Shown: one piece after another, positions 5,509 to 64,000 of the stretch
Layout: every line of letters starts with the position of its first letter
Position numbering within the stretch: the stretch's first letter is position 1
Origin: Candidatus Uhrbacteria bacterium
GTDB taxonomy: Bacteria; Patescibacteriota; Patescibacteriia; UBA9934; UBA10169
Length of the DNA stretch: 64,000 bases
Direction: 5' to 3'
Assembly (NCBI GenBank): GCA_016187485.1
Contig: JACPJO010000005.1
Location: forward strand, 226,385-290,384
Made by a program: the position numbers and the translations under genes
Notes under the pieces: model-generated
Seen by the model: the letters and a program-made list of their open reading frames with translations, nothing else
Database searches by the model: none
Told to the model about the DNA's origin: nothing

Positions 5509-5601
5509 AGCCGCTCTAGGATACACCCATTCGTGCACAAACCAAACCCCGCCCTTCGCGAAGGGCGGGGTTGGCGGTCTCGGGCGAAATCTTTCGATCT
5601 C

Positions 5602-5678
5602 TGGTGGACCTGACCGGGGTCGAACCGGCAACTCTAGGTGGCAACCATAGCGAGGTTACCGATTACCTCTACAGGCCC
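5602..5678 (-). tRNA. tRNA-Ala (anticodon UGC; G3:U70 and A73 identity elements; non-canonical anticodon-loop context)
   Basis: Minus-strand reading GGGCCTGTAGAGGTAATCGGTAACCTCGCTATGGTTGCCACCTAGAGTTGCCGGTTCGACCCCGGTCAGGTCCACCA: 7-bp acceptor stem with G3:U70, T-loop TTCGACC, encoded CCA. Confidence 0.75.
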
Positions 5679-5788
5679 GTACCCGAGGTAAAAATAAATA
5701 CAACTCTACTCATGAAGAGGGAGAGTTGTATCTTGCCACCTAGTTGAGCCCTTTGGGCTTCACCCAAAGACCTCGCTACGGTATCCCT

Positions 5789-5817
5789 ATTTCACCATAC
5801 TTTTTCTCTTCTGTCAA
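5789..5817 (-). promoter_or_regulatory. putative sigma70 promoter for tRNA-Ala (TTGACA-N17-TGAAAT, with TGg upstream of the -10)
   Basis: Minus-strand ttgacagaagagaaaaagtatggtgaaat about 100 nt upstream of the mature tRNA 5' end; same architecture as the promoter at 30310-30338. Confidence 0.4.
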
Positions 5818-5834: not shown

Positions 5835-7574
5835 TCATCCGTTTTTCTCGAGATACGCCAGATAACAATCACGACACAGAATACGTCGGTTTGGGTACCT
5901 ACGGCAAACAGTTACAAGAAGCGGCTTGCTACATTTTGTACACACGCGATTCTCAAACTGCGCGATTTGCGCTGACCACGACATCTGCTGCATACGTGGA
6001 ATAAAGTGCTCGCCGGGTGGAGCAATCCTCCATTTTCGGTAGTGCTCAACTTCCGGCTTCAAGAAGGAGAACGCACGCTTTGCCTGCTCGTCATAGATCG
6101 GAACGCCAATCCATGCGTCCGTGAGATCATCAATATTGTCGGGAATGTCCGCTAATTGGCGCGTCTTAGACATATCGTATCGATCGACACCCGTTGCACC
6201 CGCGTCTGTCGGAAGAAATTGGTTACCTCCAAGGATGCGTAGATCTTCTTCTGTGGAGCCTGCATACAACACCGAGCCAGACTCGGGAATGTACGAGGAG
6301 GAAAATGTCGTTGGGAAAATAGATCCGTATGTACCCTCGTCCATCATCGCGCACTCCATTGCGTCCACCGTCTTCCAGTACTCCTCTTCCGTGTACGGTT
6401 TGTTCAGAATGTGAAACTCCTTGTGCGCCAGACCGACGCATCCAAAACAGTTTCGACAATCGCGGCAGACCATGCAGTATTCGCTGTCCTCGCAACGCAC
6501 GGAACGATAACAAAACTTGAGACGATTCGAATCTGGACACGTTTCCACGCTGTAACTCTCATTCGTATTCACAGCTCCCCACGCATACGCGTTGCCTTGC
6601 GAAGCGCCGTATAACCATGCAGAGCGAAAATTATCCACGGCCGTGTCTTCCGAATCAAAGCAGAAATGACATCGTGTCGCGTTGTGGAGATAGTCTCCCG
6701 TTGCATCTGTCCCGCCGACGTTAAAGTTTTCGGGCCAAAAGGCGTGTGTAAGCAGCAGTTCGTCGAATCGCTTTGACCATTCATCAACAATCGAGCGCTT
6801 TCCAAGATCGATCGCCGCTATACGAGCTCGATACTCTCCTTCGGAAAGCTGTTCATTCATGAATAAAAACTTTCGATTCCGTTTGTTCGTGGCGCCAAAA
6901 CAGTGTTCGCAATTTCGGCAGTCAAAGAGAAAGGCTGACTCGAGACAGTCCTGTGATTCGCGCGCGTACCGACAACGATACATGCGATGAGAATGTGAAA
7001 TGTGGTGTGATTCTTTCACGCCAGAGGAAAGGTACACGACCGAGGAATCTTCCGTGTCCATGGCACCGACACCGAAAAACGTGCGTTTGCTCTGACATGC
7101 AAAAACAAAATAACTGTTCTGATCTCCAAAGGAGAGGAGTGCCAGTGAGTTTTCTGGCGGTACGATGTTTGCGGTTGCAAAAAACGGTACGCGGAGTTCG
7201 AGCGCACGCAGTTGTTCGAAAAATGGTTTCGAGAGGTCAAGCGTTTCATGGGTATTCGAAAAATCCTGCTCATACCATTCGGCATCGGGCAGCACGCGGA
7301 TGCCGGAGGCTGGGTGATGAAAGGAGAGGATAGGTTCCCCCGTTCGCGCATGTTTGTTCCACCAAAATTGAAAACCGATATCAAAATACCCTGCCCATTT
7401 CCATCGCGTATTCGGCGACAACTCCGACGGCGGGACATTAAACTTCTTGTACCACCCGATTTCCTCCTCGGTCATCATCCATTTCTCGCCCGTCAAAGCA
7501 CACACCCGCTCACCGAGTTTTGCGGCGTCGAGGACGGCTTTTACCTTCAAATCGTAGTTGGGAGTTTTACTCAT
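5835..7574 (-). CDS. Cys-rich protein of unknown function, paralog B (579 aa)
   Basis: Long ORF with repeated C-x2-C-x2-C-FG modules (DCRNCEHCFGATNKRN..., CMVCRDCRNCFGCVGL) and a C-terminal CxxC...CxxC zinc-ribbon-like end. About 50% aa identity to the upstream paralog, with nearly identical N- and C-termini. No recognisable enzyme motif. Confidence 0.6.
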   Translation of the reverse strand: MSKTPNYDLKVKAVLDAAKLGERVCALTGEKWMMTEEEIGWYKKFNVPPSELSPNTRWKWAGYFDIGFQFWWNKHARTGEPILSFHHPASGIRVLPDAEWYEQDFSNTHETLDLSKPFFEQLRALELRVPFFATANIVPPENSLALLSFGDQNSYFVFACQSKRTFFGVGAMDTEDSSVVYLSSGVKESHHISHSHRMYRCRYARESQDCLESAFLFDCRNCEHCFGATNKRNRKFLFMNEQLSEGEYRARIAAIDLGKRSIVDEWSKRFDELLLTHAFWPENFNVGGTDATGDYLHNATRCHFCFDSEDTAVDNFRSAWLYGASQGNAYAWGAVNTNESYSVETCPDSNRLKFCYRSVRCEDSEYCMVCRDCRNCFGCVGLAHKEFHILNKPYTEEEYWKTVDAMECAMMDEGTYGSIFPTTFSSSYIPESGSVLYAGSTEEDLRILGGNQFLPTDAGATGVDRYDMSKTRQLADIPDNIDDLTDAWIGVPIYDEQAKRAFSFLKPEVEHYRKWRIAPPGEHFIPRMQQMSWSAQIAQFENRVCTKCSKPLLVTVCRRYPNRRILCRDCYLAYLEKNG

Positions 7575-7633
7575 AATGTAACTATTCTCTTATTCTCACG
7601 AATTAGCCGAGTTAGCTGTTCTTTTCGAGATAC
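7575..7633 (-). repeat. junction/leader repeat copy 2: covers the stop region of paralog A and the 5' leader of paralog B
   Basis: gtaactattctcttattctcacgaattag...ttcttttcgagatac; contains the imperfect palindrome ctaattcgtgagaatag, which ends 4 nt before the start codon. Confidence 0.7.
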
Positions 7634-9351
7634 TCCAGATAGCACGGCCTGCAATAGATCGTTCTCTTCCGGTACGTCTGGTTAATTGTTACAAGCAGGG
7701 CCTTCGCGCACTTGCCACACGTCGTTTCTTTCCATACCTCGGAGTTTGCTTCCCTCCAGAAAGAGTAGACGCGGTCAATGAAATGACTCGTGGGAGGCGC
7801 AAGACGGTGCTTGCGGTAGAAATCAAGCTCGGGTTTGAGGTAGGAAAAACGTCGTTTGATGTTCGCGTCGTAGATCGGAACACCAAGCCAGTCCTCATCC
7901 TTCATGTCGTCAATGCAATCCGGAACGTCGTTTGTGCTACGTAACTTGCTCTCGTCAATCTCTCCAACAGCACCACCTGACTCCGGCTCAAAATCCAAAG
8001 GATGAAAGTCCTCGTTCCTTGCTGCCGTTTCCGGATACTGCACAACACCACCGTCCGGCCAGTAACCGACGAAAAAGCTCGCGGGAAAAAACATCCCATA
8101 CTCCCCTCGCTCAAGCATCGCCACTTTCACTTCGTCAAGTTTGGCGTAGTACTCCTCTTCCGTGTACTGCTTGTTGAAAAGGCAAAATCGTTTTCGCTGA
8201 AGTCCGAAGCATCCAAAACAATCTTCACAGTTGTAACAGTAGTAACAATACTCGACGCTCTGGCAATCCTGAATAGAGTACGAAAACGCACACTTCGCGC
8301 AGCGTGGGGCGATATTGCAAAGATAGATCTCACTCGCACTCATCGGTGCGCCAGAGAACGCACAGGCAGAACACTCCCCGTACGGATAGGAGACGTGATA
8401 GAGGTCTCGATACGGACCGTTCATGCCAGCAAAGACGAACTTGCAGTCCACGGCGTTAACCATGTACTCACCGATGACATCGGTACATTTTTCATTAAAG
8501 TTCTCTGGCCATACTGTATTCCTTTCCATGAGATCAAGGAATCGCGCCTTGTATTTCTCGAGTTCCGACCGTCGAGAGAGATCAACTTCCGCAAGGCGTT
8601 TTTCGTACTCGCTTTTTGAGAGTTGCTCATTGAACCAGAGGTACTGTTTATTGCGCTTGTTCGTTGCTCCAAAACATTTTTGGCAGTTGCGGCAGTCAAA
8701 AAGAAAGAGTGAATCGATGCAATCAAAACAGATGTGCGCAAACTTACAGTTGTGCATGCGGTGAGACTGCAAGATACGAAACGAGGAACTTATATTACTC
8801 CCGGCCGATGACTCGGCTGAATCTTCGAGCATGTAGGTATCGGTACTGTAAAAACTGTTCTTCGACTTGCACGCGCAGACGAAGTAACTGTTCACGTCAC
8901 CGATGGAGGAGATCGTAATGGAGTTGTGCGGCTGTTCGATGTTGCGCGAGGCAGGATAAGGGATTTTCAGCTGAAGCTCGCGCATCTGTTCAAAGAAGGA
9001 ACGCTCGAGATGGATAACGTCCTGAACAATGTGTGAAAAGTCTTCCCCAAACCATTCCTCGTCAGGAAGCGTCTGCAAACCGGTGGACGGATGGACCGTC
9101 GAGACAAACCGCTTCCCTGTCTTTGGGTGCGTGCGATACCAAAATTGATACATCTCAAAATACCCTACGACTTCTTTCATCCTCGTTTCCGGCGACCACG
9201 GATGCGGTGGCACATTGAACTTCTTGTACCACCCAATTTCCTCCTCCGTCATCTCCCATTTCTCCCCCGTCAACGCACAAACTCGCTCGCCTGGTTGTAC
9301 AGTATCGAGAATCGCTTTTACTTTGGCATCGTAGTTGGGAGTTTTGCTCAC
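7612..9351 (-). CDS. Cys-rich protein of unknown function, paralog A (579 aa, GTG start)
   Basis: Same architecture as paralog B (DCRNCQKCFGATNKRN..., CYYCYNCEDCFGCFGL, C-terminal CGKCAK...CRPCY). The first ~40 codons and the 5' leader are about 85% identical at DNA level to paralog B. Confidence 0.6.
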   Translation of the reverse strand: MSKTPNYDAKVKAILDTVQPGERVCALTGEKWEMTEEEIGWYKKFNVPPHPWSPETRMKEVVGYFEMYQFWYRTHPKTGKRFVSTVHPSTGLQTLPDEEWFGEDFSHIVQDVIHLERSFFEQMRELQLKIPYPASRNIEQPHNSITISSIGDVNSYFVCACKSKNSFYSTDTYMLEDSAESSAGSNISSSFRILQSHRMHNCKFAHICFDCIDSLFLFDCRNCQKCFGATNKRNKQYLWFNEQLSKSEYEKRLAEVDLSRRSELEKYKARFLDLMERNTVWPENFNEKCTDVIGEYMVNAVDCKFVFAGMNGPYRDLYHVSYPYGECSACAFSGAPMSASEIYLCNIAPRCAKCAFSYSIQDCQSVEYCYYCYNCEDCFGCFGLQRKRFCLFNKQYTEEEYYAKLDEVKVAMLERGEYGMFFPASFFVGYWPDGGVVQYPETAARNEDFHPLDFEPESGGAVGEIDESKLRSTNDVPDCIDDMKDEDWLGVPIYDANIKRRFSYLKPELDFYRKHRLAPPTSHFIDRVYSFWREANSEVWKETTCGKCAKALLVTINQTYRKRTIYCRPCYLEYLEKNS

Positions 9352-15625: not shown

Positions 15626-15700
15626 GCGCCGGTAGCTCAGTGGTAGAGCAGGAGCCTTTTAAGCTCAAGGTCGAGGGTCCGATCCCCTCCCGGCGCACCA
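15626..15700 (+). tRNA. tRNA-Lys (anticodon UUU)
   Basis: GCGCCGGTAGCTCAGTGGTAGAGCAGGAGCCTTTTAAGCTCAAGGTCGAGGGTCCGATCCCCTCCCGGCGCACCA: canonical cloverleaf, anticodon loop CTTTTAA, encoded CCA. Confidence 0.85.
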
Positions 15701-16756
15701 TGATTGAAGGTCCTGGGCAATACGGCGCGCGACACCGATAACAGGAAAAAGCGAACGGATATTTTTTTCAAATTCTTGCCGTCGATTCAGAGCCTCGTGA
15801 ATCTTTGGGAGCAATGATGTCGGGGACGGATCCCGCAGAACAAGAGCCGCCCCGGCTTTTTCTGCAATGTGCGCATTTTTTTCTTGCGCGCCACGGAGAG
15901 GGACAAGCACCGCCGCTTTCCCGCCGGCCACCACATCAGCAAGCGCACCCATGCCCGCACGCGTCACCACCACATCGGCCAGCGCCATCGCGTGACTATA
16001 CGTTTCTTGCAGTTCCTCATGAACTACGTAGCCGTCCGGTTGCACACGCCCGATAAAAATATGCTTCCCCTTTCCCGTCAGGTGGATGACATTGTACGCC
16101 TGCGTTAACGTCATCGCCGCAGCTTCAAAACAATGATTCAAAGAGGATGACCCTAACCCTCCACCAAGAACCAGAATCGTTGGACGATGTTCCGTAAGAG
16201 AAGGGAACGCCGCACGCGCTGTTTCGCGCGATGGCAGATGTGTGCGGTCCGCGCTTATCGCCATCCCCACTACTCGTACATCTGCACCAAACTGCCGTCG
16301 TGTCCCTTCCCACACACCATAGAATCTATCGGCAATCGGAGCAATCAAACGATTGGCAAGCCCGGGTTTTACATCAAGCTGGTAGGCCATAACCCGCGCG
16401 CGACACCCTTTTCCCGCCCAGACGAGCGGCACGCTTACGTAGCTGCCAGCCGAGAGAATCCACGCGGGGCGAAGACGCTGGACAAGTCGCCACGATAACC
16501 ACAAAGACCTCACCGTGCGGGGAAGGATAAGAAGCCACGAAAGACTCGGGTAGCGTGTGAGCTTCGGCGCAGAAAGCGCGTAAAACGGTATGCCGGCCGC
16601 GCGCACAAACCGCTCCTCCGGCCCCTCATGCGTCCCCGCCCAGACAAATTCCACGGATGCATCAAGAGCGCGCCACGCTTCCGCAATGGCAAGAAGCGGT
16701 GTCACGGAACCGAGCGTCCCTCCGCCTGTTAAAAGAATAATTTTACCTTCTTGCAT
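15665..16756 (-). CDS. murG: undecaprenyldiphospho-muramoylpentapeptide beta-N-acetylglucosaminyltransferase (MurG)
   Basis: Start placed at MQEGKIILLTGGGTLGSVTPLLAIAEAW (MurG N-terminal G-loop); GT28 C-terminal domain. The last ~12 codons overlap tRNA-Lys on the opposite strand. Confidence 0.8.
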   Translation of the reverse strand: MQEGKIILLTGGGTLGSVTPLLAIAEAWRALDASVEFVWAGTHEGPEERFVRAAGIPFYALSAPKLTRYPSLSWLLILPRTVRSLWLSWRLVQRLRPAWILSAGSYVSVPLVWAGKGCRARVMAYQLDVKPGLANRLIAPIADRFYGVWEGTRRQFGADVRVVGMAISADRTHLPSRETARAAFPSLTEHRPTILVLGGGLGSSSLNHCFEAAAMTLTQAYNVIHLTGKGKHIFIGRVQPDGYVVHEELQETYSHAMALADVVVTRAGMGALADVVAGGKAAVLVPLRGAQEKNAHIAEKAGAALVLRDPSPTSLLPKIHEALNRRQEFEKNIRSLFPVIGVARRIAQDLQSWCAGRGSDPRP

Positions 16757-17852
16757 AGCGTGAAACATTAAGGACAACGCCGATTGCGCCCATCGTAATG
16801 GCAAGTGATGTGCCACCGTAACTCACAAGGGGGAGCGTCACACCCGTGATAGGCAGAAGGCTCATCATCGCGCCAATGTTCACGAACGCCTGGAGAACAA
16901 GCCACGAGACAATCCCTACCACAACGTAGCGGCCGAAGCGGTCTGGCGCGCCGGCAGCAATACGTAAGCCTCGCAGAAACAGTGCGACAAAAAGAAGGAT
17001 GAGAGGAACGGTGAAAAGAAACCCAAGCTCTTCGGCAATAACCGCAAAGATCGAATCCCCAACCACTTCCGGCAGATATTGGAATTTTTGAATGGAGTGA
17101 CCAAACCCTCGCCCGATCCACCCGCCCGTTCCAATAGCAAGAAGTGCCTGATTCACATGATACCCGATCCCAAGTGGATCACGGAGTGGGTCTAGAAAAG
17201 CAACAAAGCGGGCCAGACGATACGGCGCAACCAGCACAAGAATCCCTACAATGAAAGCACCGGCACACGCCAGAATCCCCACGTGCGAGAGGCGCGCGCC
17301 CGCCGCAAAGAATACCGCAAGCGCCATCGCGGCGAGAATGACCATCGTCCCCACGTCTGGCTGGAGGGCCATGAGAAACAAGATGATGCCGAGCACTGTC
17401 GCAAACGGCAAAAGCCCCGATGAAAGGTCTTGTACATTTGATGTGTCACGCCGCTCAAGCCACGCTGCCAAATAAAACAAGAACGTCAACTTCACAATCT
17501 CTGCCGGTTGAAGAGAAAACAACCCGCCAAATTGAATCCATGATTGCGAGGTGCCAAACTCCGCGCGCAATCCGGGAATAAAAACGAGCACCAGCAGAAC
17601 GATGCTCACGAGAAGAAGCTCCCACGCCCATGTGCGCCACCACTGATACGGAAGGCGTGAAAGGACAATCATGATGGCAAGTCCCGGGAGAAATCCGAAG
17701 ATCAGCTGATGTTTCAAAAAGTAATACGTATCTCCAAACTGCGCGTATCCTGTCGGCCCGCCCGCGGAGGCCAACATGAGAAGACCAAGCACCAATAACG
17801 CGACGGCAACAAGGAGAAACGGAACGTCCATGCCATGTGCGCTCCCCCGCAT
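16743..17852 (-). CDS. ftsW: SEDS-family peptidoglycan glycosyltransferase FtsW/RodA
   Basis: Ten-TM SEDS protein with C-terminal PITGVTLPLVSYGGTSL; dcw context. Start is uncertain (Met15 or Met22 of the track ORF). Confidence 0.75.
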   Translation of the reverse strand: MRGSAHGMDVPFLLVAVALLVLGLLMLASAGGPTGYAQFGDTYYFLKHQLIFGFLPGLAIMIVLSRLPYQWWRTWAWELLLVSIVLLVLVFIPGLRAEFGTSQSWIQFGGLFSLQPAEIVKLTFLFYLAAWLERRDTSNVQDLSSGLLPFATVLGIILFLMALQPDVGTMVILAAMALAVFFAAGARLSHVGILACAGAFIVGILVLVAPYRLARFVAFLDPLRDPLGIGYHVNQALLAIGTGGWIGRGFGHSIQKFQYLPEVVGDSIFAVIAEELGFLFTVPLILLFVALFLRGLRIAAGAPDRFGRYVVVGIVSWLVLQAFVNIGAMMSLLPITGVTLPLVSYGGTSLAITMGAIGVVLNVSRYARR

Positions 17853-29440: not shown

Positions 29441-30264
29441 AAGAGATATTCATTCAATGCCTCTTGCCACAAACGTTGGAGTGGAAGTTTGATGCTCACA
29501 AGAGATGCGTCGTGTGGACGAGAAGCGGCTCGAGGAAACATCTTGCCAGAGACGGGCGAAATGTCAATCACCATATCCTTAAGACGAAAGATCTCTTTGG
29601 CAAACTCGTACCAACTGCACTTGCCGCTGTTGGCGGCATGGTAGAGGCCGGGAGGATATTTTTCGACGATCTCTCGCGTGGCACGTGCAAGGTCTAGCGC
29701 GTACGTCGGACTCGCAATTTCGTCATCCACGAGGTTAAGGTGATCTTTTTTTGAAGCGAGATCGAGCATCAAATCCACAAAACTTTTCTTGCCGCCTTCG
29801 CTCACGGCAGGCTTGCCAAAGAGTCGCGCAAGCCGAATGACATAGGCGCGTGCGCCTGACGCAAGCACGGCCTGTTCACCCTTGAGCTTGCTCGCACCGT
29901 AGACGGAGATCGGATGCGGCTCGTCCTCTTCCGAGTAGGATCCCTTCTCTCCATCGAAGACAAAATCCGTCCCGTAGTGCACAAACGTTGTATTAAGCTC
30001 TCGCGCAATCCGTGCAAGGTTCCCCGGCGCTTCGGCGTTGAGTTTATACGCGAGTTCCTTTCCTTCCTCCTCGGCACGATCGACATCGTTGTAAGCCACG
30101 GCATTCACGATCAAATCAGGAGCTAAGCTCCTGATTTTTTCTTCACTAACCGGAGTTAAAACATCGCACTCCTCCCGATCCCAAGCCGTAAGCTCGTGAT
30201 CGGCAAACGCCTTCACCAGTTCCTGCCCCAGCATCCCCTTCGCGCCGAGAATAAGTGTTTTCAT
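29437..30264 (-). CDS. rmlD: dTDP-4-dehydrorhamnose reductase
   Basis: MKTLILGAKGMLGQEL...YGASK: RmlD-type SDR. Confidence 0.8.
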   Translation of the reverse strand: MKTLILGAKGMLGQELVKAFADHELTAWDREECDVLTPVSEEKIRSLAPDLIVNAVAYNDVDRAEEEGKELAYKLNAEAPGNLARIARELNTTFVHYGTDFVFDGEKGSYSEEDEPHPISVYGASKLKGEQAVLASGARAYVIRLARLFGKPAVSEGGKKSFVDLMLDLASKKDHLNLVDDEIASPTYALDLARATREIVEKYPPGLYHAANSGKCSWYEFAKEIFRLKDMVIDISPVSGKMFPRAASRPHDASLVSIKLPLQRLWQEALNEYLL

Positions 30265-30309
30265 AACGCGCGTATCATAACGAACTGACTACTTTTCCAC
30301 AAACCACCA

Positions 30310-30338
30310 TTGACTTTTTGAGAAAAGTGTGATGAAAT
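30310..30338 (+). promoter_or_regulatory. putative sigma70 promoter (TTGACT-N16/17-TGAAAT, with TGa upstream of the -10) for the structured leader + tRNA unit
   Basis: ttgactttttgagaaaagtgtgatgaaat; the same arrangement as the tRNA-Ala promoter at 5789-5817. Confidence 0.4.
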
Positions 30339-30425
30339 ACTTCCGTCGATGAGGCGAAAGCCTACCTCGAGTGTCATACAAACTCCCCCTCAAAGGGAGT
30401 TTGTATTTGTTATCCAAGGACGTAC

Positions 30426-30501
30426 GGGACGGTGGAGGTAGTGGTAGCCTCATCGAATTTGACACTCGAGGGCACGGGTTCGATCCCCGTCCGTTCCACC
30501 A
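30426..30501 (+). tRNA. tRNA with alanine identity elements (G3:U70, A73) but apparent anticodon UGA; assignment uncertain
   Basis: GGGACGGTGGAGGTAGTGGTAGCCTCATCGAATTTGACACTCGAGGGCACGGGTTCGATCCCCGTCCGTTCCACCA: 7-bp acceptor stem with G3:U70, D arm GAGG/CCTC, anticodon arm TCGAA-TTTGACA-CTCGA, 4-nt variable loop, T arm ACGGG-TTCGATC-CCCGT, encoded CCA. Confidence 0.6.
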
Positions 30502-30525
30502 AACGTACAACCTTGGACTAGAGCG

Positions 30526-30557
30526 CCCCGCGTCCTCATGACGCGGGGTTGCTGTTT
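30526..30557 (+). terminator. Rho-independent terminator (ccccgcg-tcctcatga-cgcgggg followed by ttgctgttt)
   Basis: Hairpin plus U-rich tract 25 nt after the tRNA 3' end. Confidence 0.55.
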
Positions 30558-31110
30558 AAGAAAGATTGTTCAGAAATAGATGCTTGCGGTCGCGGTCAGA
30601 GATGATCGCTTCAGAAAGTGGGACCGGCCAGGGGATAGCAAGTGTTGGATCGGCGAGGTTGACGGCGGTTGCTGTTTTGTACGCCTCCTCGCTCCAGTGT
30701 TTGTTGACACTGTAGAGATAATACACCTCGTCGGTGAGACATTGGTACGAGTTTCCCACACCTTGTGGCACAAAGACGGCTTTGTTGTTGTCGAGTTCAA
30801 GCGTTACGACACGACCGAAAGCCTCGCCTTTGCGCAAGTCCACATACGCCACGAACACACGACCCGTCACCACAGAAACGTATTTGTCCCACGGTTCCGC
30901 ATGAATCCCTCGCGTGACGCCCTTCTTGTTGTACGCAAGCGAGTTCTGCACGACATGGAAACTCTCCGGCATTCCCGCCGCCACGAGCTTTTCTTTTTGA
31001 TACTTTTCCTGAAACCATCCACGCTCGTCTCCGACGGACGTTACGTCAAACACAATGAGTCCAGAAATCTCGGTCGTATGGCCCGTGACTTGGGTAGTTG
31101 GTACGCTCAT
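30556..31110 (-). CDS. rmlC: dTDP-4-dehydrorhamnose 3,5-epimerase
   Basis: Cupin-fold RmlC motifs (GDERGWFQE, RGIHAEPWDKYVSVVTGRVF). Confidence 0.85.
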   Translation of the reverse strand: MSVPTTQVTGHTTEISGLIVFDVTSVGDERGWFQEKYQKEKLVAAGMPESFHVVQNSLAYNKKGVTRGIHAEPWDKYVSVVTGRVFVAYVDLRKGEAFGRVVTLELDNNKAVFVPQGVGNSYQCLTDEVYYLYSVNKHWSEEAYKTATAVNLADPTLAIPWPVPLSEAIISDRDRKHLFLNNLS

Positions 31111-55541: not shown

Positions 55542-57395
55542 ATGCCAGAACAGAACATAAAACAAAAAACTCTTGGACTTGCGCGTCACCCGGGCTCATG
55601 GATCACCGCGCCTCTGCATCGCCGCTATCACCGCCACTATCACGGAAAGCACACGTACCCAAAGATCGTCTTTGGCATAGACCTCACCCTGTTTGGCATC
55701 GTGATCGGTACTCTTGCCTCTGCCGCTTTTGTTATTTTTTTTGGTCCGGCGCGCATTATTGACCAAGTAGATTTTACCGCGAGCGTAGCCCCAACAGAGA
55801 TCCGCTCAGGTTCTCCCTCTACCCTCCTCATGGAATGGCAGAACACGTCCAAAGAGGAATTACGCGATGCCAACATTACCTTTCTCTATCCTGATCACTT
55901 CCTGGTACAGAACTTGTACTTCGGGGGTATCGAGACAGACCAACAAACCATCCGTGTGGGAACCATCCCGCCGGGCGGTTCGGGGGCCGTGAAAATCCGC
56001 GGCGTGATGTTTGGAGATGTTGGCGGACAGCAATCGTTCACGACTACACTTTCTGGCCGTTACGGGAAATGGAACCGGCGAGTGCAAAAGTCCGTGACGC
56101 ACGATTTTGTTCCCGGCGCATCGGCTCTTGCTATTTCTGACACACTCCCCGATACCCTTGTATCCGGACAAGACGTGGAGGGTGTCATCATGGTAGCAAA
56201 CACGAGCACGATAGATTTCGGCGCCATCGCTATTCGTTCACGCCGGACAGATTTTGGATTTGTGGCGCACGATGGGGATGTGCGCACACGACAAGAAGAC
56301 GGTACCGTTACATGGATCATTCCCTCCCTCAAAGCGGCGTCGACACGCACTCTTCGTGTCCTGGGTCGCGCCCCAAATCGTACAGAGGAGTCCGTGGAGC
56401 AATGGGGATTCGAAGCCGCCTTCACGTTTGAGAACTCCACGTATGCGCAAGGAAAAACCGTGCACGATTTCCGTCTGATCCCCTCTCCGCTCTCTGCTAA
56501 CCTCGAGGCAGATCATACCTTTTTGAATCCGGGAACGGACTTCTCCGCACACGTGACCTTCAAAAATATCGGCGAGGAGACGCTCGAGAATATCGTGTAT
56601 ATTCTCGAGGCTCGTTCCCCTTTCTTCGCGGCGCGCGACGGAGAGGGCACGGTATACGACCGGGCCAAGAACCGTTGGCGCGTTGAAGCCGATCTCCCGC
56701 GCACGCTTGAGCCTGGAGAGGAAGTCTCCGCTCGCGTGCGTCTGCCCGTTCGGCTCTCCATTCCCGCATCATCGGTACAAACACACGAACGATTAACAGG
56801 CACCGTGCAATCAGGCGCCTCGTTCGCCCTGCGTTCGTCGGGAATTTCTATAGAAGTCCGATCACGCGAGCTTGTCCTTCCTATCACCTCACCCATAGCA
56901 CTCTCCTCATTTGGTCGTTATGCCACAGCGCAAGGTGACCAGCTAGGTCGCGGCCCGCTTCCGCCAAGCGTGGGGGAGGAAACACGTTATTGGGTGTTTT
57001 GGAACATTGCCGGCACCACAAACCCCATCAAGAATATTGTGGTGGAAGGAACGCTCCCGCCGTACGCGCGTTTCACCGGCAAGCAGACAATTTCCGCCGG
57101 GGCACGTGTAGCAAAGGAGGGAGAGTATGTGCGCTGGAAAATTCCAGAACTTGCCCCAAATTTTGCGCCAGGAAGCCCCCGTGCCGGCGCGGCATTCGAG
57201 ATCGGAGTGACGCCAAACGAGGCGCACCTCGGCCGTCCGCTGTCTGTCCTCGATGAAATCACTCTTACTGGCATTGATGCTGTCACGGGAGAAATTGTGC
57301 GCGCTTTCGGCGCCCGCGTAACAACAAACCTGCCTGATGACCCCATGGCGCGCGGGCTTGGCAATGTTATCGCAACCCCCGAGGTTATTTTCTAG
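55542..57395 (+). CDS. hypothetical membrane-anchored beta-rich protein (DUF11-like repeats?)
   Basis: N-terminal TM helix (IVFGIDLTLFGIVIGTLASAAFVIFF) then about 540 aa extracytoplasmic beta-rich region; start placed at MPEQNIK. Confidence 0.4.
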   Translation: MPEQNIKQKTLGLARHPGSWITAPLHRRYHRHYHGKHTYPKIVFGIDLTLFGIVIGTLASAAFVIFFGPARIIDQVDFTASVAPTEIRSGSPSTLLMEWQNTSKEELRDANITFLYPDHFLVQNLYFGGIETDQQTIRVGTIPPGGSGAVKIRGVMFGDVGGQQSFTTTLSGRYGKWNRRVQKSVTHDFVPGASALAISDTLPDTLVSGQDVEGVIMVANTSTIDFGAIAIRSRRTDFGFVAHDGDVRTRQEDGTVTWIIPSLKAASTRTLRVLGRAPNRTEESVEQWGFEAAFTFENSTYAQGKTVHDFRLIPSPLSANLEADHTFLNPGTDFSAHVTFKNIGEETLENIVYILEARSPFFAARDGEGTVYDRAKNRWRVEADLPRTLEPGEEVSARVRLPVRLSIPASSVQTHERLTGTVQSGASFALRSSGISIEVRSRELVLPITSPIALSSFGRYATAQGDQLGRGPLPPSVGEETRYWVFWNIAGTTNPIKNIVVEGTLPPYARFTGKQTISAGARVAKEGEYVRWKIPELAPNFAPGSPRAGAAFEIGVTPNEAHLGRPLSVLDEITLTGIDAVTGEIVRAFGARVTTNLPDDPMARGLGNVIATPEVIF

Positions 57396-58266
57396 CTTTC
57401 CCGTAAACGGGGTCAGGTCTTGAATTTTGAATTTTAGCTAATTCGATAATTTTACTCACCGTGGAGTAATGAAGGTCAAGATACTTTGCAATATCCGTTT
57501 GAGTGTATCTTGCTCGAAAATAGGCCAAAACGATGCCCTTATTGCGATCCGTCTTGTCCCCTATTCTGTAAAAGATCTCCTTAAGGGAAGGGCGACCAAT
57601 CATACGCTCTTCCACCGGGATCTCAATGAGGTCATCCACGTCATGAATGGACTCACGCAACGCGTGTTTAAATTGCAGGTATCCGAGAGGACCATCGGTG
57701 AGTCCAGCATCATCCAAAAACATGCCATCGCTGATAAACTTTTTGTAAAGAATCTGCGCCTGTCGCCTTTTTGTACTGAACTGGGAGAGGAGCCAATTCA
57801 CCGAGAGGCACGGAGGGATAGACACGAGACCAGAGGTTGCCCCATAACTGCTCCACCGCCATTGCTGCGGATACTTCACGACTCGAGCGCGTACGGGGTT
57901 AAGGACAATATATCTTGCCACTTCTAAAAGGTAGGGCTCTTTTTCGATTACGAAAGCTTTATAACGCCCTTCAAATACATGTCCATTTCGTCCGTGAGCC
58001 TTGTTGAAGTGTTGAGAGTAAACACCGTTGAGCTGTTTCATTCCACGCGCAAGGTTTGCTTCACCCGTCTCGACAAGAAGATGGTAGTGATTATCTAACA
58101 GACAATAGGCATGGCAAGACCACTTATAAGACGACACGGTGTCTGCCAGTACACGAAGAAAATCTTTTCTATCTCTTGAACCCAGAAAAATTGGAAGTCG
58201 TGAGTTGCCTCGAGAGATGACGTGGTAAAGCGCTCCCGGATACTCAATCCGAAGTGGACGAGCCAT
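57385..58266 (-). CDS. IS200-like / REP-associated tyrosine transposase (Y1 HUH) with C-terminal DnaA-type HTH
   Basis: HUH motif CHAYCLLDNHYHLLVE and the catalytic Tyr region (WRWSSY) in the N-terminal Y1_Tnp domain; C-terminal GIVLAYFRARYTQTDIAKYLDLHYSTVSKI resembles the DnaA domain IV HTH. Confidence 0.75.
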   Translation of the reverse strand: MARPLRIEYPGALYHVISRGNSRLPIFLGSRDRKDFLRVLADTVSSYKWSCHAYCLLDNHYHLLVETGEANLARGMKQLNGVYSQHFNKAHGRNGHVFEGRYKAFVIEKEPYLLEVARYIVLNPVRARVVKYPQQWRWSSYGATSGLVSIPPCLSVNWLLSQFSTKRRQAQILYKKFISDGMFLDDAGLTDGPLGYLQFKHALRESIHDVDDLIEIPVEERMIGRPSLKEIFYRIGDKTDRNKGIVLAYFRARYTQTDIAKYLDLHYSTVSKIIELAKIQNSRPDPVYGKARK

Positions 58267-61910: not shown

Positions 61911-62069
61911 AAGGGTAGTATAGCAAAAAAGAGATCAACGTAAGGAGGACAACATAGGTACACAACAATTCGAAAACCCCGCGGATATGCGGGGTTGGGT
62001 GAGAGCGAGGCCTAACGCTGGGTCAGGCCCCGCTCCACCAAGAAAGAACACTCTGTACGAGAACCTGCT

Positions 62070-63999
62070 CTACGGAACGAGCGGGTTCGTGTCGTCCGGA
62101 TCGTCGCAGACGTTGGTTCCGTCCGCGTCCTCGTCCACACCGGGGTTCACCGACGGGTCGAGGTCGTCGCAGTCGTCACCGCCCACAGCAGGCGGATCGC
62201 CGACCCAGGGCGAGCACTCGACGTAGAGGTCGCCGTCCTGGTCCTCTTCGAGGTCCTGGTCGGTCACATCGCAGTCGGAGTCCACGCCGTCGCACGCTTC
62301 GGGAGCGCTCGGGAAGACGGTGTCATCCGTGTCGTCGCAGTCGCCCGGCGCCGATCCGTCGCTGCAGACGGGAGTGGCGTCGCAGAACCCGTCGCCGTCG
62401 TCGTCCACAAAGGGGGTGCCTTCGTCCACGTCACCGTCGCAGTCGTCGTCCGCGAAGTTGGGAACCTCGGGATCGCCGGGAGAGATGGCGGGGTTGGCGT
62501 CGTTGCAGTCGCCGGCGCAAGTGGTAAATCCATCGCCGTCGGCGTCGAACCCTTCGTCCACAGACGTGTCGCAGTCGTCATCCACGCCGTTGCACGTCTC
62601 CGTGGCAGCGGGGTTGACGGCCGGGTTGGCGTCGTTGCAATCGCCTGCGCACACGCGCGACCCATCACCGTCGCCGTCAGCTTCGGTGGCGGGAACGGAA
62701 CCCGAGCAGTCGTTGTCGAGTCCGTCGCAGATCTCGGGATTGCCAGGGAACATGGCCGCGGAAGTGTCGGCGCAATCGCCGTTGCATTCCGCCACCCCAT
62801 CGCCGTCGTCGTCCGTTTCGGTTGCGGGCACCGCGCCGTCGCAGTCGTCGTCGGCCCCGTTGCAGGCCTCGGCAGCGGCCGGGTTCACGCTCGGGAGGAC
62901 ATCGTTGCAGTCCCCTTCGCAGACCCGGAAGCCATCGAGGTCGCTGTCGGCCTCACTGCTTGGCACGTTCCCGTTGCAGTCGTTGTCGAGTCCGTCGCAC
63001 GCTTCGGGAGCGCCGGTGAAGACAGTGGCGTCCGAGGCGTTGCAGTCGCCCTCGCACGCGCTCTGTCCGTCCCCGTCGGGATCCAGTTCGTTGGCTGGCA
63101 CACCGCCGGCGCAGTCGTTGTCGAGTCCATCGCAGATCTCGGCGGCACCGGTGAAGATCGTCGGGTTGGCGTCGTCGCAGTCGAATTGGCACTCGAACTG
63201 GCCGTCGCCGTCGGCGTCGTCTTCGGTGCTTGCCACAACGCCATTGCAGTCGTCGTCCACGCCGTTGCACGTCTCCGTAGCAGCGGGGTTGACGGCTGGG
63301 TTGGCGTCGTTGCAGTCACCCTCACAGATCATTGAGCCGTCAGCGTCCGCGTCGGCCTCGTTGGCGGCCGGAGAACCGTTGCAGTCCTCATCGTCCCCGT
63401 TGCAGAGCTCGGAAGCTCCCGGGAGCGTCGCGGGATCGGTGTCGTCGCAATCGCCAGCGCAGACGGAGACGCCGTCGGCATCGGCGTCGGACTCAGTGGC
63501 GGGAAGCCCGCCGTCGCAGTCGTCGTCGTTGCCGTTGCAGAGTTCCGGCGCGCCGGGATAGGTGAGCGGCTCCAGGTTGTCGCAGTCGCCCTCACAGGAG
63601 GTGAAGCCATCCGCGTCGCCGTCGAAACCCTCGTCGATCACGCTGTCACAGTCGTTGTCCTGGTCGTCACAGATCTCCGAGGCCGTCGGGAAGACAGTGG
63701 GTTCCGTGTCGGCGCAGTCGCCTTCACACGTGCTCCAGCCGTCGGCGTCGGCGTCGAATCCTTCGTCCACGAGGGCATCGCATTCGTTGTCCTGCCCGTC
63801 GCAGACTTCGGTGGCGTCGGGGTTCACGAGGGCGTCGCCGTCCTGGCAATCGTCCTCGCAGACCATGAAGTCGTCGCCGTCGTTGTCCACCTCGTCGCTT
63901 GGCAGGCCGTCCACGCAGTCGTCGTCCACGCCGTTGCACGTCTCCGTGGCGGCAGGATTCACGCCTGCGTTGCCGTCGTCGCAGTCTCCGCCCGGCACG
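62070..63999 (-). CDS. secreted Cys/Asp-rich repeat protein with MopE-like putative metal-binding motifs (partial; N-terminus lies beyond the window end)
   Basis: About 13 tandem ~45-aa repeats of DADGDG...C.GDCND..P.VNPAA.E.CNG.DDDC.G; the frame is open to the window edge, so the GTG/Met at 63998 is probably internal. Confidence 0.55.
   Translation of the reverse strand, partial: VPGGDCDDGNAGVNPAATETCNGVDDDCVDGLPSDEVDNDGDDFMVCEDDCQDGDALVNPDATEVCDGQDNECDALVDEGFDADADGWSTCEGDCADTEPTVFPTASEICDDQDNDCDSVIDEGFDGDADGFTSCEGDCDNLEPLTYPGAPELCNGNDDDCDGGLPATESDADADGVSVCAGDCDDTDPATLPGASELCNGDDEDCNGSPAANEADADADGSMICEGDCNDANPAVNPAATETCNGVDDDCNGVVASTEDDADGDGQFECQFDCDDANPTIFTGAAEICDGLDNDCAGGVPANELDPDGDGQSACEGDCNASDATVFTGAPEACDGLDNDCNGNVPSSEADSDLDGFRVCEGDCNDVLPSVNPAAAEACNGADDDCDGAVPATETDDDGDGVAECNGDCADTSAAMFPGNPEICDGLDNDCSGSVPATEADGDGDGSRVCAGDCNDANPAVNPAATETCNGVDDDCDTSVDEGFDADGDGFTTCAGDCNDANPAISPGDPEVPNFADDDCDGDVDEGTPFVDDDGDGFCDATPVCSDGSAPGDCDDTDDTVFPSAPEACDGVDSDCDVTDQDLEEDQDGDLYVECSPWVGDPPAVGGDDCDDLDPSVNPGVDEDADGTNVCDDPDDTNPLVP
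62100..63999. repeat. tandem DNA repeats (period about 135 bp, GC-rich) encoding the MopE-like protein repeats
   Basis: Recurring gtcgtcgcagtcgcc / gccgttgcacgtctccgtggcagcggggttgacggc blocks. Confidence 0.6.
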
Positions 64000-64000
64000 C

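Follow-up and report, generated by a model that had tools for sequence, protein, structure and literature searches.

A tRNA-like family of Candidatus Uhrbacteria with alanine acceptor identity and leaders complementary to its own D and anticodon arms

The 64,000-nucleotide stretch of contig JACPJO010000005.1 from Candidatus Uhrbacteria bacterium analysed here (the whole stretch is referred to as the window) contains at 30426–30501 on the plus strand a tRNA gene which an earlier note had read as a tRNA-Ala paralogue with its anticodon switched to the serine anticodon UGA. This gene (copy 1) and a second one at 5602–5678 on the minus strand (copy 2) belong to a tRNA-like family that is specific to its clade and combines alanine acceptor identity with a dedicated transcription unit and a self-complementary leader. 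The family changes the meaning of no codon that either of two possible anticodon registers could read. Judging from the sequences, we favour, with a probability of about 0.55, an accessory tRNA chargeable by alanyl-tRNA synthetase (AlaRS) whose anticodon arm would pair with its own leader, in a masking or an autoregulatory arrangement. No description of the family or of a self-complementary tRNA leader was found in full-text literature searches. The family is apparently undescribed, and its interest lies in the self-complementary leaders and not in an anticodon switch.

Architecture, acceptor identity and anticodon loop

In the window ARAGORN called three tRNA genes: Ala(tgc) at 5602–5678 (−), Lys(ttt) at 15626–15700 (+) and Ser(tga) at 30426–30501 (+), the latter with the anticodon tga given at loop position 35. 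Copy 1 is 76 nt long with CCA encoded in the gene. Its 5′ part reads GGGACGG-TG-GAGG-TAGTGGTAG-CCTC-A-TCGAA-TTTGACA-CTCGA and is followed by GGGC-ACGGG-TTCGATC-CCCGT-CCGTTCC-A-CCA. The acceptor stem GGGACGG/CCGTTCC is made up of the pairs G1-C72, G2-C71, G3:U70, A4-U69, C5-G68, G6-C67 and G7-C66, and the discriminator base is A73, so that the alanine elements named in the earlier note can be read directly from the gene. The variable loop GGGC has 4 nt, and the long variable arm, which is the SerRS determinant of type II tRNA-Ser, is absent. ARAGORN, the Rfam tRNA model and direct reading all agree with the earlier description of a 76-nt cloverleaf that is not a type II tRNA-Ser. The Rfam tRNA model gave 41.3 bits for copy 1 (30426–30498) and 68.8 bits for the ordinary tRNA-Lys of the window; it was the sole match in Rfam 15, with permuted tmRNA, FinP and Pistol appearing as weak sub-threshold noise.

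Copy 2 had been used in the earlier note as a bona fide tRNA-Ala for comparison. The gene exists, on the minus strand, and has G3:U70, A73, CCA and C37, but it is not a bona fide tRNA-Ala: with the Rfam tRNA model it scored 35.1 bits, below the gathering score in the whole-window scan, and it is a sister copy within the same non-canonical family. Its D stem GAGG/CCTC is identical to that of copy 1, its anticodon stem contains a mismatch, and its loop GUUGCCA reads UGC by the cloverleaf frame (hence the Ala-tgc call of ARAGORN) and GCC in a register shifted by +1.

The family was delineated with a search pattern consisting of features common to both copies in the acceptor stem, the D arm and the T loop, with anticodon information excluded. 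A scan of one genome for each species brought up 49 loci, all of them cloverleaves of about 76 nt and mostly located in metagenome-assembled genomes (MAGs) of Candidatus Uhrbacteria or Patescibacteria; some of the MAGs holding matches are labelled ‘uncultured Gammaproteobacteria’. The pattern scan and a family covariance model together yielded about 60 homologues, mostly from Candidatus Uhrbacteria genomes, and these genomes often hold several copies, frequently with one shared ‘anticodon’. Members score 78–97 bits with the family model and the ordinary tRNAs of the same loci 48 bits at most. In the window there are exactly two members, copy 1 (85.5 bits) and copy 2 (82.3 bits). Among the matches listed from a metagenome scan were the further members L119 (very like copy 1), L126 (twice) and L134, besides some more distant relatives, and 2.9 million viral contigs contained no family member.

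In an alignment of 51 members, G1, G2, G3, U70, C71, C72 and A73 are invariant (51/51). The acceptor stem is paired in 98.9% of cells with both-sided changes at 4 of the 7 pairs, and the pairs 4:69 to 7:66 covary while G3:U70 remains fixed in every member. The T stem is paired in 98.8% of cells, with both-sided changes at 4 of the 5 pairs. For the anticodon stem the corresponding value is 77.3%, and 31:39 is unpaired in 28/51. Invariance of the D arm among the aligned members is by construction of the search pattern; in members that the pattern does not cover, the D stems covary (GGAG/CUCC, GGGG/CCCC, GUGG/CCAC). When the D stem is read with 5 bp, A14 and R15 come into place, and R15:Y48 covaries (A:T 38, G:C 7). 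The tertiary signature of the L-shape is present with U8, A14, R15:Y48, G18G19, T54-Psi55-C56 and A58, G18G19 being invariant. The 7-bp acceptor stem, the 5-bp T stem and the 4-nt variable loop are not those of allo-tRNAs, which have an 8/4 or 9/3 arrangement and a long variable arm. The occurrence of the same architecture with compensatory changes in about 60 genes goes far beyond chance.

Several further RNAs were noted during the scans. A degenerate family copy (L030 4864–4939; 65.5 bits, C70 in place of U70) lies about 200 nt upstream of an intact one. In other metagenomes, two tRNAs (L109 978–1051, L112 1844–1917) carry a G3:U70, A73 acceptor together with an ordinary D arm and a canonical 5-bp/7-nt anticodon arm with a GUC (Asp) anticodon; they are without an antisense leader and may be Asp-to-Ala mismatched tRNAs. 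Finally, RNAs of about 72 nt with G3:U70 (L102 2856–2927, L098 378–449, L133 1518–1588, L082 2388–2459, L115 4216–4287) show a normal T arm, a degenerate D arm and a long anticodon-like stem with a UUGNCA loop motif. ARAGORN called no tRNA at these five positions, and the two that were checked for a leader complement, L102 and L098, are without one.

The anticodon loop of the family reads N32-U33-U34-G35-N36-C37-A38 and is followed by C39-C40. Position 36 alone is free (A 26, U 11, C 9, G 5), and positions 33–35 and 37–40 are conserved, with U33 in 50/51, G35 in 49/51 and variation between U and C at position 34. The cloverleaf frame yields the anticodons UGA (22), UGU (9), UGC (8), UGG (4), CGA (3), CGU (2), CGC (1), UAA (1) and UAG (1). 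The earlier note had proposed a single anticodon switch, which is at odds with some 60 members carrying UGA, UGU, UGC, UGG, CGN or UAR, and with an alanine anticodon in 9/51 only. In copy 1 the arm TCGAA-TTTGACA-CTCGA contains an A31.C39 mismatch, C37, and UGA at 34–36; this non-alanine anticodon, given in the earlier note, follows both from the cloverleaf frame and from the Ser(UGA) call of ARAGORN.

The doubt expressed there about the loop register was justified. By the frame, 48/51 members have C37, and position 32 holds a purine in 29/51. In the +1 register, U is found at position 32 in 50/51, G at 34 in 49/51 and a purine at 37 throughout (51/51). This register, however, requires a 4-bp stem with a 9-nt loop, and its ‘U33’ would be C in 6/51. 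Copy 1, with the loop UUUGACA, reads UGA in the former and GAC in the latter; across the alignment, the anticodon is non-alanine in 42/51 by frame and in 48/51 in the +1 register. UUGNCAC corresponds to the heptaloop of ordinary tRNAs with a GNC anticodon, such as tRNA-Val(GAC) in L059 and L111. Isolated arms fold weakly and heterogeneously, 5/51 with 5 bp and a 7-nt loop and many best with 3–4 bp and a 9-nt loop. Moving both strands of the anticodon stem by one position to restore a canonical loop was tried and rejected, since pairing fails. The nearest relatives share the base N in 27/51 cases vs 16.9 ± 3.7 by chance, and N differs between close relatives as well as between genes at the same syntenic slot beside IleRS. 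A canonical decoder arm (7-nt loop, Y32, U33, purine 37, 5-bp stem) is not what the family has; with C37 and 77% of the stem cells paired, its anticodon arm is poorly suited to decoding. The anticodon of copy 1 is UGA by geometry and possibly GAC by signature, non-alanine and atypical either way.

Leader, trailer and transcription unit

Each family gene forms a unit of its own with a promoter, a leader of about 80 nt, the tRNA and a terminator; the flanks are conserved from member to member, which is not so for ordinary tRNAs. The leader holds two blocks complementary to the tRNA body. Block A′, 10 nt at the transcript start (GTCGATGAGG at 30345–30354 (+) in copy 1; CGTAGCGAGG at 5771–5780 (−) in copy 2), complements tRNA positions 22–31, that is, the 3′ strand of the D stem, N26 and the 5′ strand of the anticodon stem. 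Block X of copy 1 (CCTCGAGTGTCA, 30365–30376 (+)) is the exact complement of tRNA positions 35–46, a perfect match of 12 nt, and that of copy 2 (CTAGGTGGCAA, 5733–5743 (−)) complements positions 35–45; across the family X complements positions 33–46, comprising the anticodon loop and the 3′ strand of its stem. The complementarity totals about 25 nt of the tRNA core and is better conserved than the anticodon stem of the tRNA itself.

A perfect X match of at least 9 nt, 45–70 nt upstream, is found in 43 of 60 members vs 0.5% of shuffled leaders. In the ordinary tRNAs of the same loci the best leader complement measures 4–9 nt at scattered positions. In the covariation counts the leader windows were chosen by best complementarity, the fair tests being the shuffles and the ordinary-tRNA controls; counted in this way, A′ is paired in 92.5% of cells (55 members), with a covariation of 0.642 vs 0.21 for shuffles. 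N26, without a partner in the cloverleaf, covaries with the opposite A′ base (UA 33, CG 11, UG 7). X covaries with tRNA positions 34–43, where each rare loop variant is met by a compensating change in the leader, and the variable loop base N is paired with X in 58/58 (UA 28, GC 11, AU 9, CG 5, GU 4, UG 1). Since each loop is matched base for base by its own leader, selection for leader pairing acts on the loop, and the tolerance of G-U pairs points to pairing of the RNA, and not a DNA repeat, as the target of selection. Predicted dimers of leader and tRNA were on average 10.5 kcal/mol more stable than the parts folded apart, compared with 2.5 kcal/mol for shuffled leaders. The minimum-energy fold of the whole copy 2 unit pairs X with the anticodon arm, and the fold z-scores of the two window units are −4.9 and −6.7.

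Two observations can be set beside this. Positions 37–41 (CACCA) duplicate the 3′-terminal C72-A76 in about 45% of members, so that block X (..UGGUG..) could also pair with an uncharged 3′ end in a manner resembling the T-box bulge. In addition, two distant family-like genes with other D arms (L075 303–379, L076 371–446) have antisense elements of 9 and 13 nt, respectively, about 54 nt upstream.

When the leader is folded by itself, A′ and X are predicted to pair with each other through their 5′ halves, and GUGN′CAA is left single-stranded between the resulting hairpin and the next. Hairpin P2 of copy 1 (AGGC-GAAA-GCCT, 30352–30363 (+)) was obtained from the predicted fold; in family leaders P2 has the form GAGG..CCUCC and mirrors the D stem of the tRNA. 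The D arm itself (30433–30451) has a stem, GGAGGU/ACCUC, that amounts to a Shine-Dalgarno/anti-Shine-Dalgarno pairing, of which P2 repeats GAGG..CCUCC. Hairpin P3 of copy 1 (30376–30406 (+); 12 bp, 7-nt loop, then U-rich) is terminator-like and was found by a terminator scan as well as in the minimum-energy fold, and copy 2 has a P3 followed by a U-rich stretch at 5698–5731 (−). In equivalent hairpins of other family leaders the base of the stem is rich in A on the 5′ side and rich in U on the 3′ side. Inspection of the family leaders brought up no reading frame that is conserved.

A further helix, P4, is formed between leader and trailer and encloses the tRNA. In the predicted folds of copy 1 its 5′ arm is TCCAAGG (30413–30419 (+)) and its 3′ arm CCTTGGA (30511–30517), the latter belonging to a segment (30511–30521 (+)) that ends in a degenerate CCA-like tail (ACTA/CTAG). 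In copy 2 (5575–5687 (−)), CTCGGGT (5687–5681) pairs with GCCCGAG (5585–5579) and is followed by ACCG (5578–5575). The tails of the window copies are thus degenerate (ACUA, ACCG). Such a helix with a CCA-like tail accompanies 40 of 60 family genes; among ordinary tRNAs it was seen in 1 of 15, and among shuffles in 6.5%. Two ordinary tRNAs, Gly-CCC (L007 3465–3538) and Pro-GGG (L010 282–355), also show leader-trailer complementarity, over 10–13 bp, without a CCA-like tail and without an antisense leader; extended precursor helices may therefore be common in the lineage. In L011 (6705–6780) the 3′ end of the tRNA is apparently fused to a GGGTCCA repeat of the trailer, with loss of CCA and of the trailer arm.

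As the earlier note had supposed, copy 1 has a promoter and a terminator of its own. The promoter (30310–30338 (+)) consists of TTGACT (30310–30315), a 17-bp spacer and TG-n-TGAAAT (30333–30338); it was not flagged in a consensus scan because its −10 hexamer has no A at position 2. Copy 2 (5789–5817 (−)) has TTGACA (5817–5812), again a 17-bp spacer, and TG-n-TGAAAT (5794–5789). This geometry (TTGACA, exact in most, 17 bp and TnnAAT, 6–9 nt before the leader) recurs in about 50 of 60 members, and the distance from the promoter to A′ is fixed across the family. The intrinsic terminator of copy 1, detected by the terminator scan at 30525–30559 (+), has a 10-bp stem with 8 G-C pairs, followed by TGCTGTTTAA; for copy 2 a terminator hairpin AACCCCGCCCTTCG..GAAGGGCGGGGTTTG is predicted by folding at 5543–5573 (−).

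These features suggest the following course of events. AlaRS needs the acceptor helix only; G3:U70 and A73 are sufficient, and the anticodon and the D arm are not required. For this reason we infer that AlaRS would charge the family RNA with alanine, and charging could proceed even while the leader keeps hold of the RNA body. Pairing of the leader with the D arm and the anticodon arm would take place in cis while both are part of the precursor, or in trans once RNase P has cleaved it. Such pairing would mask the anticodon arm or feed back on read-through of P3, and the outcome would be control over the amount of free, usable alanyl-RNA. An anticodon-masking leader would also fit the word ‘regulated’ in the earlier note.

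Codon meaning and weighing of the explanations

Codon meaning was assessed from the columns of 36 orthologue groups taken from the fetched loci and the window. TCA columns contain Ser in 35% and Ala in 13%, the same as those of TCT, TCC and TCG, so that the recoding of UCA to alanine, which had been suggested for copy 1, finds no correlate in the proteins. ACA columns are like those of the other Thr codons, CCA columns like those of the other Pro codons, and GTY, GAY and GGY columns like those of their synonymous codons; all of these codons are used at normal frequency. Reassignment was therefore rejected, for the standard meaning is kept throughout. Ordinary tRNAs of the same genomes have normal loops (Thr-CGU, Pro-GGG, Gly-GCC, Lys, Arg, Gln, Leu), and a related genome (L054) contains an ordinary type II tRNA-Ser(GGA) of 87 nt with a long arm. 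With standard codon meanings and normal ordinary tRNAs, the family is to be regarded as an extra set that is the main decoder of no codon, and a normal tRNA-Ser(UGA) would be located elsewhere in the genome. The view of the loop as a UCA-decoding device is likewise weakened by C37, 77% stem pairing and the match between the loop and its own leader. Given the leader pairing, the ‘UGA anticodon’ appears primarily as one strand of an RNA-RNA duplex and not as a dedicated reader of UCA.

Decoding in a milder form has nevertheless to be considered. The alanylated RNA might decode UCA (other copies ACA, CCA or GCA) and cause low-level or conditional Ser/Thr/Pro-to-Ala misincorporation, with the leader as the off-switch. 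Such a role would agree with an invariant alanine identity beside frame anticodons that are mostly non-alanine, with U33 in 50/51, with the wobble-like U/C variation of position 34 and with a leader complement that holds the matching codon then A; moreover, natural mistranslating tRNAs in which odd anticodon loops curtail decoding are known (review PMC11415595). However, any such effect must be small, because the TCA, ACA and CCA columns match those of the synonyms. C37 (48/51), the purine at position 32 (29/51) and the weakly paired stem are unfavourable for decoding, G35 never gives the anticodons of Val, Gly or Glu although these would be equally mild substitutions, several copies with the same anticodon are found in one small genome, and N changes between close relatives. 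Hence, we consider misincorporation unlikely. If instead the register is shifted to U32-U33-G34-N35-C36-A37-C38, copy 1 would read GUC/GUU (Val) and copy 2 GGC/GGU (Gly) as Ala, or with a dual Ala/Val identity. The heptaloop UUGNCAC of ordinary GNC-anticodon tRNAs such as tRNA-Val(GAC), purine 37 in 51/51, U32 in 50/51 and the many arms that fold best with 3–4 bp and a 9-nt loop speak for such a decoder, which, on the other hand, calls for a loop longer by two nucleotides on its 5′ side and has C for ‘U33’ in 6/51. Distant relatives with solid stems (L102, L098) keep their loop in the unshifted frame, and the GTY, GAY and GGY codons are without altered meaning, so that this register is very unlikely to be the one in use.

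The family might also serve as a codon-independent alanine donor recognised by its loop, in RqcH/NEMF-type alanine tailing of stalled chains or with an envelope aminoacyl-tRNA transferase. In tRNA-Ala, RqcH makes contact with G35 and opens up the anticodon stem (PMC8373112); a weak anticodon stem would suit such unwinding, which is put forward as an idea only, and alanine identity is combined here with a motif-like conserved loop (G35 in 49/51). Copy 2 lies in a peptidoglycan cluster and copy 1 in the rml (rhamnose) cluster. Yet the window and 85 immediate neighbours of family genes contain no Fem/FemAB, aminoacyl-phosphatidylglycerol synthase (aaPGS), cyclodipeptide synthase (CDPS), L/F-transferase or NFACT domain, on which ground a link to a cell-wall aminoacyl-tRNA transferase was rejected; G18G19 is kept, in contrast to the staphylococcal cell-wall tRNA-Gly; and leader pairing already accounts for part of the constraint on the loop. 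A donor role therefore seems quite improbable. The tRNA-like part could, conversely, be mainly the partner of the leader, forming with it a small RNA (sRNA) and its sponge or a toxin-antitoxin-like RNA pair in which aminoacylation is secondary or absent. Spacers of E. coli tRNA transcripts acting as sRNA sponges are known (3′ETS-leuZ). A cut by RNase P at G1 would free a stable, structured leader RNA of about 80 nt, partial termination at P3 would give leader-only transcripts in excess, and the complementarity of leader and body is better kept than the anticodon stem. Against this, the invariant G3:U70, A73 and CCA together with the intact elbow imply that charging and tRNA-handling proteins matter, and the genes are inherited vertically beside housekeeping genes and are not mobile (none in the 2.9 million viral contigs), which leaves such a role with little probability indeed. 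Decaying tRNA pseudogenes or a selfish tRNA-derived repeat might be suspected from the several copies per genome, the degenerate copy beside an intact one in L030 and the inverted-repeat flanks. The compensatory changes in four tRNA helices and three leader/trailer helices, a covariation that contradicts decay or mere repetition, the conserved near-consensus promoters and terminators and the syntenic genomic positions reduce this explanation to a negligible one.

The preferred reading, an AlaRS-chargeable accessory tRNA paired with its own leader, has points against it as well. The distant relative in L075 (303–379) has A3:U70 in place of G3:U70 although its leader element is present, and alanine identity may hence not be universal. 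The genes adjoining the family are of translation and housekeeping type, as for ordinary tRNAs, which would fit a ribosomal role equally well. P3 could be a mere structural element or an insulator instead of a regulated terminator. The percentages given for leader covariation are inflated, because the windows were picked by best complementarity. Finally, the order of A′ and X is permuted relative to a continuous antisense duplex, and formation of both helices together needs a pseudoknot-like or clamp topology. Furthermore, pairing with the leader explains the match between loop and leader, not why UUG-CAC stays conserved, so that an additional partner may exist.

A more far-reaching proposal, which we put forward only tentatively and hold to be possible but somewhat doubtful, is a self-masked tRNA: an alanine-chargeable RNA made in one piece with an antisense version, in permuted order, of its D arm and anticodon arm, with the leader as clamp or sensor and the freed RNA as a conditional mistranslator or a codon-independent donor. 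To our knowledge this kind of riboregulation has been described for no tRNA gene. If true, the family would be the first among tRNA genes to have an antisense partner of its own encoded in cis, and would offer a natural case of a tRNA that RNA pairing switches on and off. That a lineage with tiny genomes keeps several alanine-identity tRNAs with non-alanine anticodons bears on how far a mismatch between identity and anticodon is tolerated or exploited, and also on the question why alanine, the identity of which is read from the acceptor stem alone, recurs in tRNA-like RNAs such as tmRNA. In practical terms, annotation pipelines will name these genes tRNA-Ser, -Thr, -Pro or -Ala by their anticodon, which skews tRNA inventories of Patescibacteria and inferences on their genetic code.

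Genomic surroundings and comparison with known systems

The neighbours of family genes show loose synteny only (IleRS in 8 loci; Mur ligase, TypA, RecJ, UvrB, NUDIX), and a conserved neighbour gene as a partner was rejected for this reason. A dedicated synthetase paralogue was found neither in the window nor among the 85 immediate neighbours; IleRS, LeuRS and CysRS nearby are housekeeping enzymes. In the window, copy 1 lies antisense within the gap between the rmlC/rmlB and the rmlD/NTP-transferase genes. This gap of 290 nt (30264–30556) interrupts what appears to be a single minus-strand operon of the rmlB-rmlC-rmlD-rmlA type. Both hairpins flanking copy 1 have U tracts on the plus strand only, and transcription of the minus strand may thus read through the antisense unit. 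Copy 2 is located in a cell-wall (peptidoglycan) cluster with Mur ligases, Ddl, MurG and MraY. The longest MurG-like open reading frame (ORF; 15665–16816) overlaps the 3′ end of tRNA-Lys (15626–15700) by 36 nt on the opposite strand; the real start codon of the gene is probably further inside the ORF.

Beside copy 2, two tandem Cys-rich paralogues of 579 aa (5835–7574 and 7612–9351 (−)) are 46% identical and have no match in Pfam or the PDB; the protein of 5835–7574 is 100% identical to the NCBI protein HYW18_03940 of a Candidatus Uhrbacteria bacterium. This protein family is confined to Uhrbacteria/Patescibacteria, where it has hundreds of members and forms tandem arrays of up to 8 (L179), and often adjoins TraG/TrwB-like ATPases. 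A tie to the tRNA family was considered, as a homologue adjoins a family tRNA in L041 too, and was rejected, since the proteins are very abundant in Uhrbacteria and five other loci with up to 8 tandem paralogues are without a family tRNA. A phage or plasmid origin of the region was likewise rejected: rfbB alone is similar to phage or plasmid records, and the surroundings are ordinary chromosome. Genes identical to those of the window are present in the metagenome runs SRR121134xx. Elsewhere in the window we noted an IS200-like Y1 transposase with an HTH domain (57385–58266) and, in the last 2 kb (62001–64000), a jump in G+C to 67% with an encoded protein that has 13 MopE-like metal-binding repeats.

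Among known systems, mistranslating variants of tRNA-Ala and G3:U70 mutants (human tRNA-Ala, yeast tRNA-Pro with G3:U70, the yeast CUG-Ala clade) share with the family the AlaRS identity and the non-alanine anticodon, AlaRS ignoring the anticodon (PMC11415595). They are, however, single genes with ordinary anticodon arms, purine 37 and no dedicated leader, whereas the family has multiple copies across a clade, C37, weak stems and a self-complementary leader, and leaves codon meaning unaffected. Streptomyces tRNA-ProX (PMC10404621) is likewise a bacterial family with one amino-acid identity, varied anticodons and atypical loops, but it is distributed sporadically and has a dedicated ProRS paralogue; the present family has alanine identity, an antisense leader and no synthetase paralogue within the scope given above. 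The tRNA-like domain of tmRNA shares G3:U70 with the family; it is alanine-charged, and its function does not rest on an ordinary anticodon, alanine being the identity that persists when the anticodon arm is lost. It has no anticodon arm, and tmRNA includes an mRNA-like reading frame, in contrast to the full cloverleaf of the family, for which no conserved frame came to light; a related genome (L042) contains a normal tmRNA. The staphylococcal non-proteinogenic tRNA-Gly and the ‘tRNA-Other’ of Bacillus cereus are similarly extra atypical paralogues beside the translational set. The staphylococcal tRNA-Gly has lost G18G19 and is tied to Fem transferases, while the family has G18G19 invariant and no FemAB in the window or among the neighbours.

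T-box leaders also present a single-stranded anticodon complement, that is, a codon with a 3′ purine, just before a terminator-like hairpin. They control synthetase or amino-acid genes and are built with a Stem I platform and a T-box bulge; their pairing covers no more than 3–4 nt plus the NCCA end. In the family, unlike T-boxes, the controlled gene would be the tRNA itself and the complementarity extends over about 25 nt in two blocks; the T-box covariance model gave no match at E ≤ 10 in 30340–30580 and none at gathering score in the whole window. Taken together, the family shows the sequence marks of an AlaRS substrate and does not pass for a type II tRNA-Ser, a canonical decoder loop, a codon-reassigning tRNA, an allo-tRNA, a Fem-type tRNA or, by the covariance model, a T-box. 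The joining of a complete cloverleaf with a cis-encoded antisense leader sets it apart from each of the systems compared, none of which combines the two.

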